Assembly: GCA_965602855.1 (NCBI GenBank)
Contig: CBFCZV010000002.1
Coordinates: 25,659 to 89,658 of the forward strand
Direction: 5' to 3'
DNA from: an uncultured Gammaproteobacteria bacterium
GTDB lineage: Bacteria > Pseudomonadota > Gammaproteobacteria > SZUA-229
Length of the DNA stretch: 64,000 nt
This document shows positions 47,761 to 54,046 of the stretch, piece by piece (within the stretch, counting starts at the first letter, position 1; each line of letters begins with the position of its first letter). A program made the translations under genes and the position numbers. Under the pieces are notes generated by a model. It was not told the origin of the DNA. It ran no database searches and was given only the letters and a program-made list of their open reading frames with translations.

Positions 47761-48555
47761 TCAGGGTTCAGTGGTTTTATTTGTATTTGCCAATGCAATA
47801 CTTTTCCTGTCCAGTGCCAGTGTTATTGATGCGTTTACCGACATCTCTCTTATCAGAAGAAGAAACGTACATAACCAGCTAACCCCGCCTAGAACAACCA
47901 TTAAATCATGATATGGTTTGAGGTTGCCAATAAATGGCAGAGCTGGAAGATCAACTGTTTTGGTATAGCTTATGTATTCGGTAAACCCAAACGACTGGAT
48001 CAGGTACGGCAACCAGAATGCGAGTATCGATACAAAGACCATGACGCCTAGTAATCTTATGATTAGTGTCGCTGGATAATGGTGTGCAGGAAGCAGTGCA
48101 TTTTTCAGGCCTGAAAAAAGTGCTGTAAATATATTAATGAAAGGCAGAATAAGAAAAGCAGCTAGCAGTGCCAATATGGGATAGCCAATTACAATTGCTC
48201 CAATTCTGTCCTTCATGCCCCTTATTTTGTCTTTGTAATTAATTTTCCAGTAATACTCTGTTGAGGGGTTGATTACACGCATGAGCTGATTGGTTTTGCG
48301 ACTGTATATCAGTGCAATGCTGTGTCCCTGTCGAAACTCAACATTACGATTATATAGTCGAACAGAATCTTCTTTTCCGCTATCAGTTTTGTACCAGATT
48401 ACCTGATCCTGATGGTGGTCTACTCTGGATTGCACGTGATAATTATTATCAGTCGATACGCTAGTGCTCGAGTAATTGCTTTCCTTTTCATCTATCACCG
48501 TGCCTGTAATGACATAGGAATATTCATCAACAACTTTATTGATATTGAATAGCAT
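47761..48555 (-). CDS. hypothetical membrane protein (AT-rich orphan)
   Basis: 264 aa; soluble N-terminal domain plus about four TM helices; a markedly AT-rich gene with AT-rich flanks. Confidence 0.45.
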   Translation of the reverse strand: MLFNINKVVDEYSYVITGTVIDEKESNYSSTSVSTDNNYHVQSRVDHHQDQVIWYKTDSGKEDSVRLYNRNVEFRQGHSIALIYSRKTNQLMRVINPSTEYYWKINYKDKIRGMKDRIGAIVIGYPILALLAAFLILPFINIFTALFSGLKNALLPAHHYPATLIIRLLGVMVFVSILAFWLPYLIQSFGFTEYISYTKTVDLPALPFIGNLKPYHDLMVVLGGVSWLCTFLLLIREMSVNASITLALDRKSIALANTNKTTEP

Positions 48556-48786: not shown

Positions 48787-50232
48787 ATGGGCGAAGAAAT
48801 ACAATATAGCCATTTTAAGAAATCAGATTACCAGCAATTTGTTTCTCGACTTAAAGATGAAACGGCGTTGGTAAGGGACTGGTTCGATAGTGGTCATTTT
48901 TCATCAGCGCCATTGATGGCGGGCTATGAGCTGGAAGCCTGGTTGATTGATAATGAAGGCTCTCCTGCCCCGATTAACAAGGAGTTTCTTGATCTTGCTA
49001 ATAACGCCATGCTCAGTCCTGAGCTGGCCAGATTTAATATCGAACTGAACGTAGAGCCAGAAGTGTTGAGTGGCAGTGTACTGTCCAGTTTTGAGAATAA
49101 GCTGAATACGCTCTGGCAACAGTGTGTGCAAACTGCGCAGTCGCTGGATAGTCAGTTCGTGGGTATTGGTATTCTGCCGACCCTGATGGATGATGACCTT
49201 ATTCTGGAAAATATTTCTTTGCTTGATCGTTATAAGGCGCTCAATGAGCAGGTACTGCGATTGCGTAAGGGTCTGGGTATTAAACTTGATATTAATGGCA
49301 CTGAGCACTTACAGGTCATGCATAAGGATGTGATGCTGGAAGCTGCCGCGACATCGTTGCAGATTCACATACAGGTGCCATTAGGGCAGGCGGTACGTTA
49401 TTACAATGCGTCGATATTGCTGTCGGCACCGATGGTGGCAGTGAGCACCAATTCACCCTGTCTGTTTGGAAAAAAACTGTGGCAGGAAACGCGTATTCCA
49501 GTTTTTGAACAGGCTGTGCCAGCGGGTGGTTATGGTGGTGCGATTAGTGGGCCGGTGCAGCGAGTTGGTTTTGGAACGGGCTATGCGCGTGAGTCTCTGT
49601 CTGAATGCTTTCAGGAAAACCTCGAGCATTTCCCCGTATTGTTGCCCGTGCATTATGAGTCGGATATTGCCGAGTTAAAACATCTGCGTTTACAGAATGG
49701 TACGATCTGGCGATGGAACCGGCCTTTGATTGGTTTTGATGATGATGGAACACCGCATCTGCGTATCGAGCACCGTGTTTGTGCCACTAATCCTTCGATG
49801 CTAGACAACATCGCCAATACGGCTTTCTTCTATGGTCTGGTGCATTACTATGCGAGTGCGGACGTGCCGCCTGAAAACGTCATGCCGTTTACCGATGCCA
49901 GGGATAATTTTTATCGTGCTGCACAGCTTGGTATGAAGCATAAAATTAGCTGGATGGGTGAGCACACAGATTCGCTGCAGAATATTGTTTTAAACAGGTT
50001 GCTCAATGAAGCTGAAACGGGCTTGTATAAACTGGGTATTGAACAATCTGATGTGCAGCGTTATTTGTCAGTTATCCAACAACGTGTCGAGCAGAATAAA
50101 ACAGGGAGTCAGTGGCAACTCGATTTTCTTAATGCACATCAGGATGACAGGAAACTATTGACGTTAAACTATTTGAAGAATCAGGCTTCTGGTCAGCCTG
50201 TGCACGAGTGGGATCTTGAGACGATATGTTAA
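48787..50232 (+). CDS. glutamate-cysteine ligase family 2 (YbdK-like carboxylate-amine ligase), long form
   Basis: 481 aa; GYELEAWLID and RIEHRVCATNPS segments align with the GCS2 conserved blocks. Confidence 0.6.
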   Translation: MGEEIQYSHFKKSDYQQFVSRLKDETALVRDWFDSGHFSSAPLMAGYELEAWLIDNEGSPAPINKEFLDLANNAMLSPELARFNIELNVEPEVLSGSVLSSFENKLNTLWQQCVQTAQSLDSQFVGIGILPTLMDDDLILENISLLDRYKALNEQVLRLRKGLGIKLDINGTEHLQVMHKDVMLEAAATSLQIHIQVPLGQAVRYYNASILLSAPMVAVSTNSPCLFGKKLWQETRIPVFEQAVPAGGYGGAISGPVQRVGFGTGYARESLSECFQENLEHFPVLLPVHYESDIAELKHLRLQNGTIWRWNRPLIGFDDDGTPHLRIEHRVCATNPSMLDNIANTAFFYGLVHYYASADVPPENVMPFTDARDNFYRAAQLGMKHKISWMGEHTDSLQNIVLNRLLNEAETGLYKLGIEQSDVQRYLSVIQQRVEQNKTGSQWQLDFLNAHQDDRKLLTLNYLKNQASGQPVHEWDLETIC

Positions 50233-51233
50233 ATGAGATTAATTTTGTACCTGAAGGTTTTTTAACGGCAACGGTCGAAGAGCTTGAGGATTTATTAAAA
50301 ACGCCAACCTTGATTCATTTGTCGGGTGTTAATCCGCAGCCATTATTTGTTTCAACATTATTGCATGGTAATGAAACCACGGGTTTTTATGCCATTCAGC
50401 GATTGCTGAAAAAACACACCGAGCAGCCTCTGCCAAGAGCAGTATCTATATTCATCGGCAATATCGCAGCAGCAAAAGAAAATCAGCGTCATTTGGATGA
50501 TCAGGATGATTACAATCGTATCTGGCCGGGCAGTCACCACGGTGATTCGTCAGAAAAAGATATGATGCAGTCGGTGACTTATATCATGCGTAAAAAAAAG
50601 CCGTTTGCCAGTATTGATATACACAACAACACGGGCAAGAATCCACATTATGCCTGCATTAATATACTTAACCCACACGGCCTGGTGCTGGCTTCAAAGT
50701 TCAGTGATATAGCGGTTTACTTCACTAGCCCCAAAGGCGTGCAATCGTCGGCATTTTCAGATTTTTGCCCATCAGCGGTACTCGAATGTGGTCAGTCCAG
50801 TGACAGCTCAGGTGTTGATCATGCGCTGGCCTATCTCGAAACTGTTCTTGCTATGGATGACTTGTCGTCACATAACAGCAAAAGCCTGAAGCTATACCAC
50901 ACCGTGGCGCGCGTCACGATTCCAAAAACAGTCACAATGGGTGAGGACATTGGTAGTGGCTGCCATGATATATGTTTAAGTGAGCAACTGGATGATAGGA
51001 ATTTTCATCATATTCAGGCAGGCACTGAATTTGCGACAGCGAATCAGGAAAAAGAAAAACTGGTTATTGTTAGCAGTGAGAGTGATGAGGATGTAACGGA
51101 TGAATATATTGAAATGAAAAATAACCGACTGTTGTTTAAAAAACCGATTACCTTATCAATGTTCACCAGATGTGAAAAAGCAATCAGGCAGGATTGTGTT
51201 TGCTATTTTATGGAAGAGTTACATATTGGTTAA
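50226..51233 (+). CDS. succinylglutamate desuccinylase/aspartoacylase (AstE/AspA) family zinc deacylase
   Basis: 335 aa; LLHGNETTG zinc-binding motif; 7-nt overlap with the upstream ligase. Confidence 0.6.
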   Translation: MLNEINFVPEGFLTATVEELEDLLKTPTLIHLSGVNPQPLFVSTLLHGNETTGFYAIQRLLKKHTEQPLPRAVSIFIGNIAAAKENQRHLDDQDDYNRIWPGSHHGDSSEKDMMQSVTYIMRKKKPFASIDIHNNTGKNPHYACINILNPHGLVLASKFSDIAVYFTSPKGVQSSAFSDFCPSAVLECGQSSDSSGVDHALAYLETVLAMDDLSSHNSKSLKLYHTVARVTIPKTVTMGEDIGSGCHDICLSEQLDDRNFHHIQAGTEFATANQEKEKLVIVSSESDEDVTDEYIEMKNNRLLFKKPITLSMFTRCEKAIRQDCVCYFMEELHIG

Positions 51234-51365
51234 TGGTCTATAGTCAGCTCATAGCGTGACAGATAATTTCTTGTGTTACAGTAGGTTTACCTGATACGGA
51301 TCAATATGGTTTTCGTATGTTTGGGTAAATATGGCGTTGAACAATGTAGAGAGGAGATTTGTTAG

Positions 51366-53117
51366 TTGGCTACAGAAATCCGTTTCGGAAAATACCTCAA
51401 AGAAGCTGCCGCTCATCACGACACTGTCTCTTATAATGATCTGATTCCAAAAGTCGAGCTGGATGAAGAAGGGCGTGAGAAGGCCGCCGAAGTCACCGAT
51501 ATCAAACTTCGTACTATCGATGTCTATCGTCTGTTGCAACCCTATGTCACCAGCAGAACCATGGAGCAGGTTAAGGCCGTAGTGCCGCTGGCGCTGTATC
51601 TTATGTTGTTCCAGATGATTATTCTGCGTCAGGGTGTCAATGATGTGATGATTATCACTGGCGGTCTTTTTGCCGTCATCATCGGCCTGATGTTTTTCAT
51701 GGAAGGTTTGAAAGTGGGTCTGATGCCCTTTGGTTCCTCGCTCGGTACTACGCTGCCAGCAAAATCCTCCCTGCCAGTCGTGCTCACCATTGCTTTTATA
51801 CTGGGTATTGGTGTGACCTTTGCCGAACCTGCGATAGGTGCGCTGAAAGCAGCGGGGCAGGTGGTGAAAGTCGAAACCGCCCCTTATTTATATACCTTGC
51901 TCAATGACTGGTCAGAACAATTAGTGCTGGTGGTTGGCATGGGTGTTGGGCTTGCGGTTGTTTTAGGTACGGTGCGCCTGTTATATGGCTGGAGTCTGAA
52001 GCCATTTATCTATGCCATCTTATCGCCCACGATATTGCTGACGATTTATATTCAGCAGAATGATGAATTATCTAAAATGCTGGGGCTGGCCTGGGATTGT
52101 GGTGCCGTCACCACCGGTCCAGTGACTGTGCCACTGGTGCTGGCGCTAGGTATCGGTATCGCATCGGCAGCGGGTAAGGGTAGTTCCTCCTTATCAGGTT
52201 TTGGTATCGTCACCATGGCTTCCTTATTCCCCATTATGGGCGTCGAGCTATTAGCCATTTATGTGTTCCATGCCACCACACCGGAAGCCATTATTGCTGC
52301 AGCCAGTGTTAGTAGTGAAGAGATTGCAGCCTGGTACACCATGACACCGTATGCCGAAGTCATTGGTGGCATACGTGCAATTGTGCCGCTGGTTATTTTT
52401 CTGGTTATCGTGATGAAAGTGGTATTGCGGGAAAAAATTCGTAACTCCGGCATTATTACCTATGGCATTGCACTGGCGGTGATTGGCATGATTATTTTTA
52501 GTTTAGGTTTAACTTACGGCCTGGCTAAACTGGGTGGTCAATCCGGTGGTTTTATCCCTGCGGCCTTTTCTCAGGTAAGCAGTGTTGAAGGTTCGCCTCT
52601 GTATTTCTATTCGCTGGGGATTTTAATCGCATTATTTTTTGCGTGGGCACTGGGCTTTGGTGCAACTCTGGCAGAACCGGCTTTGAATGCGCTGGGTATC
52701 ACCGTTGAACAACTTACCAATGGTGCCTTTAAGAAATCGACTCTGATGTATGCGGTTTCATTTGGTGTTGGTTTTGGCATCGCGATAGGCGTGGCGAAAA
52801 TAGTTTTCGATATACAAATCGCCTACCTGTTAATCGCTTTTTATGCGGTCGCCATAGTATTAACCTATTTATCATCTGAGGAATTTGTCAATATCGCATG
52901 GGATAGCGCTGGCGTCACCACCGGTCCGGTAACCGTGCCACTGGTATTAGCCATGGGCTTAGGTTTTGCCAATAGTGCCAATGCCATCGAAGGTTTTGGT
53001 ATTTTATCCATGGCATCCATCGGCCCCATTATTGCGGTGCAGGCGACAGGTCTATGGATCAATATGAAAGTTAATCTTAAACGTAAAAAATTACAGCCAG
53101 TTGCAGCGGAGATATAA
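51366..53117 (+). CDS. DUF1538-type polytopic membrane protein with internal duplication
   Basis: 583 aa; the two halves share AWDxxxVTTGPVTVPLVLAxGxG; TTG start with GAGGAG SD. Confidence 0.65.
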   Translation: MATEIRFGKYLKEAAAHHDTVSYNDLIPKVELDEEGREKAAEVTDIKLRTIDVYRLLQPYVTSRTMEQVKAVVPLALYLMLFQMIILRQGVNDVMIITGGLFAVIIGLMFFMEGLKVGLMPFGSSLGTTLPAKSSLPVVLTIAFILGIGVTFAEPAIGALKAAGQVVKVETAPYLYTLLNDWSEQLVLVVGMGVGLAVVLGTVRLLYGWSLKPFIYAILSPTILLTIYIQQNDELSKMLGLAWDCGAVTTGPVTVPLVLALGIGIASAAGKGSSSLSGFGIVTMASLFPIMGVELLAIYVFHATTPEAIIAAASVSSEEIAAWYTMTPYAEVIGGIRAIVPLVIFLVIVMKVVLREKIRNSGIITYGIALAVIGMIIFSLGLTYGLAKLGGQSGGFIPAAFSQVSSVEGSPLYFYSLGILIALFFAWALGFGATLAEPALNALGITVEQLTNGAFKKSTLMYAVSFGVGFGIAIGVAKIVFDIQIAYLLIAFYAVAIVLTYLSSEEFVNIAWDSAGVTTGPVTVPLVLAMGLGFANSANAIEGFGILSMASIGPIIAVQATGLWINMKVNLKRKKLQPVAAEI

Positions 53118-53119
53118 AA

Positions 53120-53482
53120 ATGCCACAAAGAGAAATGGTTATTCTGACTGATGCTTCATTGATTACCTGCGTGGTGCAGAAAGGCCTGGCAGATGAAGTA
53201 GTAAAAGCCGCACAGGAAGGTGGTGCACAGGGTGCGACTATCTATTACGGCCGTGGTACCGGCGTACGTGAACGTCTGGGCATTCTTGGTTTAACCATCG
53301 AAGCCGAAAAAGAAGTTATCACTATTATGGTCGCCAATGACCAGATGGATCGTATCTTTGAAAAAATGTATATGGCTGGACAAATGGATACTCCAGGCAA
53401 GGGATTTATGTATGTTGCTCAGCTGGAAAAAGCAGCGACCTATGTGCCCGAAGAAATGCTTGAGAAACTGGTGAGCGAATGA
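53120..53482 (+). CDS. PII-like signal transduction protein
   Basis: 120 aa; GATIYYGRGTG loop region reminiscent of GlnB-family T-loop proteins; abuts the upstream stop. Confidence 0.55.
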   Translation: MPQREMVILTDASLITCVVQKGLADEVVKAAQEGGAQGATIYYGRGTGVRERLGILGLTIEAEKEVITIMVANDQMDRIFEKMYMAGQMDTPGKGFMYVAQLEKAATYVPEEMLEKLVSE

Positions 53483-53820
53483 CCGCCCTTAAAACAACAA
53501 AATTAATTACTGCAATACTGCCAAAAGGCACGTCACTAGATGTGGTCGATAAACTAAAGCATGAAAAATCATTGACCACGGCTAACTTTAACTATGCACG
53601 TGGCATGGGCAAATTAACGCCCGCAAAATATCGTGGTGTTGGTGAGCAAAGTGAAAAAGAAGTTTTTACAGTCGTTGTTGATGAATCACGCGCCGATGAG
53701 ATTTTTGAATATATCTATAATCTTGCTGAGATAAATCGCCCACACGGCGGTTTGATTTATATGCAGAAGTTAATGCAGAGTACAGATTTTGTTTTGCCGG
53801 ATGTGACTGAGGAACATTAA
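53479..53820 (+). CDS. PII-like signal transduction protein (second paralog)
   Basis: 113 aa; ATGA overlap with the upstream gene. Confidence 0.5.
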   Translation: MTALKTTKLITAILPKGTSLDVVDKLKHEKSLTTANFNYARGMGKLTPAKYRGVGEQSEKEVFTVVVDESRADEIFEYIYNLAEINRPHGGLIYMQKLMQSTDFVLPDVTEEH

Positions 53821-53848: not shown

Positions 53849-54046
53849 ATGGACAAAAAAGATCCTAAAAAGAATTTTATCAATTCATACATAGAACGTG
53901 TGCTTGCAATTAAGGCATTGCGAAAAATTAGAGGTACACTGGATGAATTTGAGCAAGAAGATTTAAAGCATAAAAAGGTCGCAAAGAATGCTTTAATGTT
54001 TATTGTTGTGATTTTAGTGCTGTACTATTTTTATGTGCGCTTCTGA
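53849..54046 (+). CDS. small hypothetical membrane protein
   Basis: 65 aa; C-terminal TM segment. Confidence 0.3.
   Translation: MDKKDPKKNFINSYIERVLAIKALRKIRGTLDEFEQEDLKHKKVAKNALMFIVVILVLYYFYVRF

Follow-up and report, generated by a model that had tools for sequence, protein, structure and literature searches.

The window analysed here is a 64,000-nucleotide stretch of contig CBFCZV010000002.1 from an uncultured Gammaproteobacteria bacterium. It carries a three-gene cassette encoding a duplicated DUF1538 membrane protein (DUF1538x2) followed by two small PII-like proteins, called P1 (first PII-like gene) and P2 (second PII-like gene). The three open reading frames (ORFs) lie at the positions where the first-pass annotation, made from the sequence of the window, had placed them:

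51350 to 51356, + strand: Shine-Dalgarno-like AGAGGAG, 9 nt 5' of the TTG of the DUF1538 gene, read directly from the sequence
51366 to 53117, + strand: DUF1538x2 gene, ORF of 583 residues with a TTG start
53120 to 53482, + strand: P1 gene, ORF of 120 residues, PII-like
53479 to 53820, + strand: P2 gene, ORF of 113 residues, divergent PII-like
53479 to 53482, + strand: ATGA stop/start overlap of P1 and P2, read directly from the sequence

The TTG start is supported by the 64 N-terminal residues that it adds, since these are conserved among homologues. Both junctions of the cassette had initially been described as stop/start overlaps. This holds for the second one, where the ATGA overlap implies that P1 and P2 may be translationally coupled, whereas the first is a 2-nt spacer (TAA at 53115-53117, ATG at 53120). 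In relatives, a 4-nt overlap is the most frequent form of the DUF1538-to-P1 junction (45/56), and the cassette junctions of the surveyed relatives are mostly 4-nt or 1-nt overlaps. Promoter and terminator scans gave counts at or near shuffle expectation, with nothing convincing in the intergenic regions, and a search of the window against Rfam returned no match. The closest relatives are uncultured Gammaproteobacteria, some of which are labelled Methylococcales.

The product of the first gene belongs to the DUF1538 family (PF07556), the Pfam model being matched in two stretches with 362.6 bits against a cutoff of 22.6. As the first-pass annotation had noticed, the protein is duplicated: its halves share 31% identity (E=1e-33) and each contains the motif AWDxxxVTTGPVTVPLVLA. 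The same family includes UmpAB of Halomonas zhaodongensis, a two-component Na+(Li+,K+)/H+ antiporter that works as a heterodimer, both subunits being required and each having 7 predicted spans (PMC5484666). The protein was modelled with AlphaFold2 (AF2), giving an all-helical structure with a predicted local distance difference test (pLDDT) score of 76.6 and a predicted template modelling (pTM) score of 0.77. Its features are:

51366 to 51557, + strand: N-terminal soluble extension, residues 1-64, K/R-rich, predicted cytoplasmic, conserved among homologues, pLDDT about 60
51558 to 52265, + strand: half-domain 1, UmpA-like, residues 65-300, from the hmmsearch envelope and the alignment of the halves
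51825 to 51827, + strand: Glu154 of the AEP motif, invariant in 18/18 diverse half-domains, at a predicted helix break (helices 136-152 and 155-164)
52089 to 52145, + strand: motif AWDCGAVTTGPVTVPLVLA, residues 242-260, predicted helix-break-helix (235-248, 254-268), with invariant Asp244, Thr250 and Gly251
52359 to 53060, + strand: half-domain 2, UmpB-like, residues 332-565, from the hmmsearch envelope
52674 to 52676, + strand: Glu437, the half-2 counterpart of Glu154, invariant across the 18 half-domains
52896 to 52952, + strand: motif AWDSAGVTTGPVTVPLVLA, residues 511-529, with invariant Asp513, Thr519 and Gly520

Over the 18 half-domains, which come from seven phyla, E154/E437 and D244/D513 are the sole invariant charged residues. 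One invariant Glu and one invariant Asp per half would be typical of a cation or proton site. In the AF2 model each half has two helix-break-helix elements, located at the AEP and (W/F)D..TGP motifs, and a fold search of this model against the PDB found no match to any solved structure. The distribution of Lys and Arg over 132 full-length homologues (22.6 in loops predicted to be inside vs 7.4 outside) fits 7+7 spans, and the protein probably consists of two halves of about 7 spans each in opposite orientation, both termini being cytoplasmic. The N-terminal extension carries the conserved motif IRFG..(V/I)SYN.L.P and a mean of 9.5 Lys and Arg over the 132 sequences, which makes it a candidate docking element. 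The protein as a whole is strongly conserved, with about 70% identity across phyla, and no additional Pfam signalling domain was detected in the longer DUF1538 relatives (640-1330 residues).

Like UmpAB, the cassette protein is composed of two homologous units of about 7 spans with AEP and WD..TGP motifs. Unlike UmpAB, whose subunits are separate, these units are fused in one ORF and preceded by the 64-residue extension, and 160 related loci have, as a rule, the fused form. The best NCBIfam models were UmpA for the N-terminal half (NF041627, 216.9 bits) and UmpB for the C-terminal half (NF041628, 164.2 bits), and the equivalog cutoffs of 490 and 500 bits were not reached. Ten short DUF1538 representatives were considered as true UmpA proteins and rejected, all scoring at most 148 bits against the cutoff of 490. 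The first-pass annotation had left the substrate of the membrane protein blank; the presence of a Na+(Li+,K+)/H+ antiporter in the family (PMC5484666) narrows that statement, although the window protein is only a distant, fused relative of it.

The two small genes encode distinct PII-like paralogues, as had been proposed. P1 passes the Pfam P-II cutoff (PF00543, 32.1 vs 25 bits) and has more than 1500 homologues. P2 alone falls under this cutoff (21.8 vs 25 bits), and was recognised through its homology to P1 (BLASTP 31% identity, E=5e-16; 99.2% in an hhalign comparison of the two families) and through the matches of its family profile to solved PII proteins in the PDB. The best of these, at E=5.5e-5, is chain H of 9p1x, a 105-residue P-II protein from a NifDK-NifI1,2 entry. 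The AF2 model of P1 (pLDDT 83.3) shows the beta-alpha-beta-beta-alpha-beta topology with an additional N-terminal strand and a C-terminal helix, and its top 50 Foldseek matches are all GlnB/GlnK proteins (probability 1.0, TM-score, the template modelling score, 0.6-0.7). The ferredoxin-like PII fold anticipated for the small proteins is thus borne out for P1; P2, as its homologue, would be expected to have the same fold. In public records, P1-type and fused proteins are named 'P-II family nitrogen regulator' or 'nitrogen regulatory protein P-II', a naming that is probably misleading, and P2 has no recorded Pfam match in the loci examined.

The first-pass annotation had also pointed to the T-loop and to nucleotide or 2-oxoglutarate binding residues, and here the outcome was negative: the canonical residues for the ATP phosphates, 2-oxoglutarate and modification are missing in both proteins. 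For this comparison, 123 P1-type and 110 P2-type sequences were aligned to GlnB and GlnK of E. coli as references. The P1 family keeps G27, G35, G37, K58, G87 and G89 at 95% or more. It has replaced Q39 by R (95%), K90 by I or F, R101 by T (88%) and R103 by I or V, and 91% of the sequences have Gly at position 51, so that the modification site Y51 is absent. The P2 family is degenerate at most cleft positions and poorly conserved overall. The T-loop region of P1 is a separate feature:

53255 to 53293, + strand: P1 T-loop region (GTGVRERLGILGL, residues 46-58), shortened by about 5 residues relative to GlnB

Despite this 5-residue deletion relative to the canonical T-loop of about 19 residues, the T-loop is among the most conserved stretches of P1 (RGTGVRERLGLLG). 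Because the canonical residues have been lost in P1 and P2, sensing of Mg-ATP and 2-oxoglutarate and uridylylation of the T-loop are unsupported. On these sequence patterns, sensing and contact would fall to P1, with P2 as a structural partner.

The gene order outside this genome was examined in three surveys. The first used a DUF1538 half-domain alignment as query with one genome per species (80 loci), and the second was a metagenome scan that gave 80 more divergent loci; the third, by targeted look-ups, added further loci. Surveyed loci are designated by L-numbers, and linkage was counted only in scanned loci with at least 800 nt 3' of the DUF1538 gene (n=123). A PII-like gene lay directly 3' of the DUF1538 gene in all 123 of these informative loci, 105 of which have P1 and P2, 11 a triple-PII fusion (one multi-PII-domain protein) and 7 P1 only. 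The hosts of the 166 surveyed loci include Gamma-, Alpha-, Beta- and Zetaproteobacteria, Nitrospinota, Nitrospirota, Campylobacterota, SAR324, Gemmatimonadota, Planctomycetota, Myxococcota and Bdellovibrionota, and the linkage was also seen in Bacillota (L166), Verrucomicrobiota, Bacteroidota, Cloacimonadota and Ozemobacter. The DUF1538-PII pairing is therefore family-wide and extends over more than 10 phyla, and the conservation of gene order on which the first-pass reading depended was found. It is possible to imagine that the adjacency is fortuitous, or that the small ORFs are annotation artefacts and not functional PII-like genes, given that P2 alone fails the Pfam cutoff and that no clear promoter or terminator was found. 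This idea is already refuted by the comparative data, namely the linkage at every informative locus across phyla and the protein-level motifs conserved in the 123 P1 and 110 P2 sequences, to which the confident predicted PII fold of P1 may be added, and its probability is negligible.

Beyond the cassette, flanking genes are not conserved, and no third gene is conserved with it. Since the flanks vary and a split version on a Methylocystis plasmid lies between copies of IS66, the cassette appears as a self-contained and mobile unit, and the three-gene arrangement is widely transferred. Isolate genomes that carry the cassette include those of Thiorhodococcus minor and Sulfurovum sp. CS9. One locus (L132:1604-6305) has two tandem DUF1538-PII cassettes, the first with a single PII-like gene and the second with P1 and P2.

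Other arrangements of the same components were found. In a sister clade, the gene 3' of the fused DUF1538 gene encodes one protein of 370-425 residues with three different tandem PII domains (PIIx3). Examples are:

L107:5869-7008, PIIx3 gene
L119:5915-7135, PIIx3 gene
L168:5001-6173, PIIx3 gene
L169:5001-6110, PIIx3 gene

This PIIx3 family comprises about 80 clusters from Bacteroidota, Verrucomicrobiota, Bacteriovoracales, Margulisbacteria, Cloacimonadota and Ozemobacter; its genes lie directly 3' of a DUF1538 gene in all cases examined, including 4/4 distant members, and its proteins appear in public records as 'P-II family nitrogen regulator' or 'hypothetical'. In Acetoanaerobium noterae (L166:6467-7120), a 217-residue protein with two PII domains (PIIx2) overlaps the stop of a 498-residue fused DUF1538 gene. 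Its N-terminal domain is degenerate and its C-terminal domain is P1-like; the neighbours encode a CbiM transporter and an HD-domain protein. Plasmid pGW6_2 of Methylocystis rosea (L165:4261-6052) carries a split DUF1538 pair (230 and 242 residues) followed by a single annotated P-II gene, and this UmpAB-style cassette is bracketed by the IS66 elements mentioned above.

A chain of three PII domains suggests that each transporter gene is matched by one PII pseudo-trimer whose subunits are not equivalent and, by extension, it points to a mixed P1/P2 trimer in the window cassette. A precedent exists in NifI1/NifI2, a 2:1 heterotrimeric PII that blocks nitrogenase (PMC12439982, 10.64898/2025.12.07.692841; PDB 9p1x). 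Like the cassette, which has P1 and P2 in 105 loci, NifI1,2 is built from two adjacent divergent PII paralogues. It differs from P1/P2 in having a soluble enzyme target, in binding ATP/ADP and 2-oxoglutarate, and in its association with nif genes, none of which was seen in any locus examined; a P1/P2 heteromer is also deduced, while that of NifI1,2 is described. Judging from these patterns, the regulator is probably an asymmetric, heteromeric P1/P2 trimer.

Alternatively, P1 and P2 could remain unmixed and form separate homotrimers, for example one for each half-domain or two sensors for two signals. NifI1,2 is the only heteromeric PII described so far, all other characterised PII proteins being homotrimeric (PMC12439982), and the loci with a single PII gene (the 7 with P1 only and Methylocystis) show that a homotrimer can suffice. 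The ATGA coupling moreover suggests expression near 1:1, which is a poor fit to a single 2:1 trimer. Against this stand the strict P1-then-P2 order at 105 loci and the PIIx3 chains directly 3' of the transporter gene in sister clades, with PIIx2 in another. P2 is also degenerate and fast-evolving, as expected for a non-sensing partner and not for an independent sensor. Separate homotrimers are accordingly conceivable but doubtful.

The genes around the cassette give hints on substrate and effector. CPA-type Na+/H+ exchangers adjoin it in 10/166 loci (L006, L018, L021, L030, L034, L036, L047, L057, L142 and L169), representing about 7 independent arrangements, and 8 of these exchangers are fused to a domain that binds cyclic nucleoside monophosphates (cNMP). 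The fused exchangers have about 826 residues. The orientation of the exchangers relative to the cassette varies; in L021, the stop of the exchanger overlaps the DUF1538 start. A tight same-strand array of 1-2 cNMP-binding proteins, DUF1538x2, P1 and a short P2 was found in 25 marine loci:

L085-L120, e.g. L087:579-6266 and L104:566-6270: marine clade, with cNMP-binding proteins of 155 residues and a P2 of 98 residues

In 11 of these 25 loci a CHASE2 adenylate/guanylate cyclase lies 5' of the array, and the arrays are followed by convergent HlyD and ABC genes. L169, from a Sphingobacteriaceae metagenome-assembled genome (MAG), has, in this order, genes for a cyclase-HD protein, DUF1538x2, PIIx3 and a Na+/H+ exchanger. 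The recurrent neighbours of the 166 loci include no genes for RuBisCO, carboxysomes or carbonic anhydrase and no amt, gln or nif genes, and neither amtB nor nitrogen-assimilation genes were found in the flanks of the window. Taken together, these neighbours hint at a role in cation/pH homeostasis and at a cyclic or adenine nucleotide as candidate effector. DUF1538 is also among the top 20 Pfam families that predict optimal growth pH in a machine-learning study, a correlative result only (PMC13255231).

Several further neighbours were recorded. An RDD-family membrane protein is convergent to the cassette in L003 (5456-5905) and L004 (4895-5344), which is probably a coincidence; Na+(Li+,K+)/H+ antiport by the RDD family was reported by the laboratory that described UmpAB (PMC5996927). 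An Ion_trans-type cation channel is encoded a few genes 3' of the cassette in three related loci, L122, L123 and L160 (e.g. L123:3316-4248). In four Zetaproteobacteria (L012:6572-8341, L026:3774-5426, L046:3299-4984 and L078:7264-8907), a SpoIIE/PP2C phosphatase and a fumarase gene lie 3' of the cassette; no separate P1 or P2 was seen in L012, where a 589-residue PP2C protein has a stretch that weakly matches P1. In cyanobacteria the T-loop of PII is dephosphorylated by PP2C phosphatases, and this neighbour could hint at phospho-control.

The same architecture might serve another cargo, such as bicarbonate or other dissolved inorganic carbon, ammonium or a different ion, the antiport of UmpAB then being a side activity or one restricted to its clade. 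PII proteins classically gate carbon and nitrogen transporters (10.1101/2023.08.10.552651), and many hosts of the cassette are chemolithoautotrophs (Zetaproteobacteria, Nitrospina, Nitrospirales, Nitrosomonadaceae, sulfur oxidisers and purple sulfur bacteria). The distance of the DUF1538 protein from the UmpA/UmpB cutoffs and a predicted fold unlike that of all solved antiporters are also in line with it. The host list, however, mirrors which MAGs were sampled, and the recurrent neighbours are Na+/H+ exchangers and cNMP components, with no carbon- or nitrogen-assimilation genes among them. The invariant charged residues, moreover, are carboxylates, which suit cations or protons and not anions. 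A different cargo is thus rather unlikely, and the narrower idea of bicarbonate transport in a CO2-concentrating mechanism (CCM) was dropped for want of any supporting neighbour among the surveyed loci.

Comparison with known PII-transporter pairs helps to place the cassette. It resembles AmtB-GlnK in that a transporter and a PII-family gene share one operon, and in the cytoplasmic PII fold with an Arg-containing T-loop. In AmtB-GlnK this loop plugs the ammonium channel, and the cassette probably works along similar lines. The partner of GlnK, however, is a C3 trimer, whereas DUF1538x2 would be a pseudo-dimer that is not an Amt protein and has an unmatched fold. P1 and P2 further differ from GlnK by the loss of Q39, K90, R101, R103 and Y51, by the presence of two paralogues instead of one and by the lack of nitrogen genes nearby. 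SbtA is a bicarbonate transporter and SbtB a PII-like protein that binds cAMP and other adenine nucleotides. The cassette is similar to this pair in having a PII-like protein dedicated to a secondary transporter and a non-canonical effector, the cNMP link being suggested here by the neighbours; it differs in that the membrane protein has no homology to SbtA and no CCM genes lie near the cassette. PstA/DarA, CutA and CPII share with P1 and P2 the ferredoxin-like PII superfamily and altered loops and ligands, and P1 and P2 are nearer to canonical GlnB/GlnK than to these proteins in sequence and fold: neither they nor SbtB occurred among the sequence, profile or top-50 structural matches of P1/P2. 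The cassette is therefore not an UmpAB equivalog, nor are its regulators canonical GlnB/GlnK, SbtB or NifI. The analogy with AmtB-GlnK and SbtA-SbtB drawn by the first-pass annotation stands for the mechanism and fails for family membership and for the canonical PII residues. A Borrelia protein described as PII-like (BB0017) was followed as a lead and rejected as an unrelated DUF2179/YitT protein. In the literature on DUF1538, UmpAB, PF07556, PII-NG and the PII superfamily, no paper was found that links DUF1538 to PII, subscription-only papers being outside this coverage, and DUF1538 is not mentioned in a preprint on PII 'valve plugs' (10.1101/2023.08.10.552651).

The explanation that fits these features best, and towards which we lean modestly, is a transporter of the UmpAB/DUF1538 family gated by PII-like proteins. 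It would most likely exchange monovalent cations for protons, its effector would be non-canonical and its regulator is probably heteromeric. The cassette would then encode an ion transporter together with its own cytoplasmic regulator. In the single-chain transporter, each half would supply one invariant Glu (AEP) and one invariant Asp ((W/F)D..TG) at helix breaks, and exchange of Na+, K+ or Li+ for H+ is the most likely activity because of the homology to UmpAB and the invariant carboxylates. P1 and P2, co-translated with the transporter, would form a trimer, plausibly mixed, that docks on its cytoplasmic face, and the conserved T-loop of P1 (G-x-G-V-R-E-R-L-G) may open or block transport upon a small-molecule signal. 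This signal would not be read canonically through Mg-ATP and 2-oxoglutarate, an adenine or cyclic nucleotide being the leading candidate. A more specific proposal, with a chance well short of even, is that an obligate mixed P1/P2 trimer acts as an asymmetric plug on a pseudo-two-fold inverted-repeat transporter and responds to a cyclic or adenine nucleotide held in a cleft devoid of the triphosphate clamp.

Several points weigh against this explanation. PII is evidently not required for transport as such, since antiport by UmpAB was obtained without any PII protein, and the study that described it does not mention PII (PMC5484666); the activity of UmpAB itself comes from this one study, based on heterologous complementation and vesicles. 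The substrate may differ from that of UmpAB because the scores are far below the UmpA/UmpB cutoffs. Ligand binding by P1 and P2 is hypothetical, given that K90, R101, R103, Q39 and Y51 are absent, and contact of P1/P2 with the transporter is putative. When both tails are removed, the bias in Lys and Arg shrinks to 8.9 vs 7.4, a weak signal. A large part of the cNMP signal stems from a single marine lineage (median identity 81%), and the locus in the window has no cyclase, cNMP-binding gene or CPA neighbour of its own.

A further alternative is a signalling module, in which the DUF1538 protein would mainly serve in the membrane as a sensor or anchor, binding the PII-like proteins or setting them free, and these in turn would control an unlinked target, as AmtB-bound GlnK does with DraG. 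Membrane sequestration of PII is known from AmtB-GlnK-DraG, UmpAB works without PII in E. coli, and several lineages have the cassette embedded in arrays for cyclic-nucleotide signalling. The cassette has no conserved third gene, however, and the identity of about 70% across phyla and the invariant carboxylates at helix breaks are typical of a working transporter, which makes a mainly signalling role improbable. The reading proposed by the first-pass annotation, a PII-coupled transport or sensing module, thus stands as the best hypothesis: the PII fold and the gene order in other genomes both came out in its favour, and three of its points have been amended.

Other ORFs of the window lie close to the cassette. 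A 65-residue ORF (53849-54046, + strand; MDKKDPKK...) with a hydrophobic C-terminus begins 28 nt 3' of P2; it is a called gene in L001, has a 71% identical counterpart in L005 and is absent from all other loci, and thus appears to be lineage-specific. On the 5' side (48787-51233, + strand), an overlapping gene pair encodes a 481-residue protein with a weak GCS2/carboxylate-amine-ligase match (18.6 bits, below the cutoff) and a 335-residue AstE/AspA-type deacylase. This pair is syntenic with L005 only and is perhaps an uncharacterised ligase and deacylase pair. Because their synteny is limited to the closest relative, both the small ORF and the GCS2-like/AstE-like pair are placed outside the cassette. 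Further upstream (47761-48555, - strand), a 264-residue predicted membrane protein has no Pfam match.

What appears new here, as far as the searchable literature goes, is the DUF1538-PII pairing; antiport by DUF1538/UmpAB proteins and transporters gated by PII were already known. PII proteins belong to the most widely distributed signal processors, and their known transporter partners (AmtB, SbtA, NrtBCD) all concern nitrogen or carbon. If the gated-exchanger explanation is true, PII control would be extended to cation/pH homeostasis, and a transporter family for which there is one heterologous study would gain a physiological handle. Every informative locus shows the coupling, which takes split, fused, PIIx2 and PIIx3 forms, and the series of one gene, two genes and three domains provides natural material on the adaptation of a trimeric regulator to a partner that is not a trimer. 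The cassette also offers a PII cleft with a new ligand logic and a membrane fold without a similar solved structure. Should the mixed P1/P2 trimer be real, it would follow NifI1,2 as the second heteromeric PII known and would be the first one with a membrane transporter as its partner. The C3-on-C3 symmetry rule seen in AmtB-GlnK and SbtA-SbtB would not hold for it, and the same asymmetry would be hard-wired in sister clades as a PIIx3 polypeptide. Combined with a nucleotide effector, such a regulator would link cation/pH homeostasis to cNMP signalling in more than 10 phyla.

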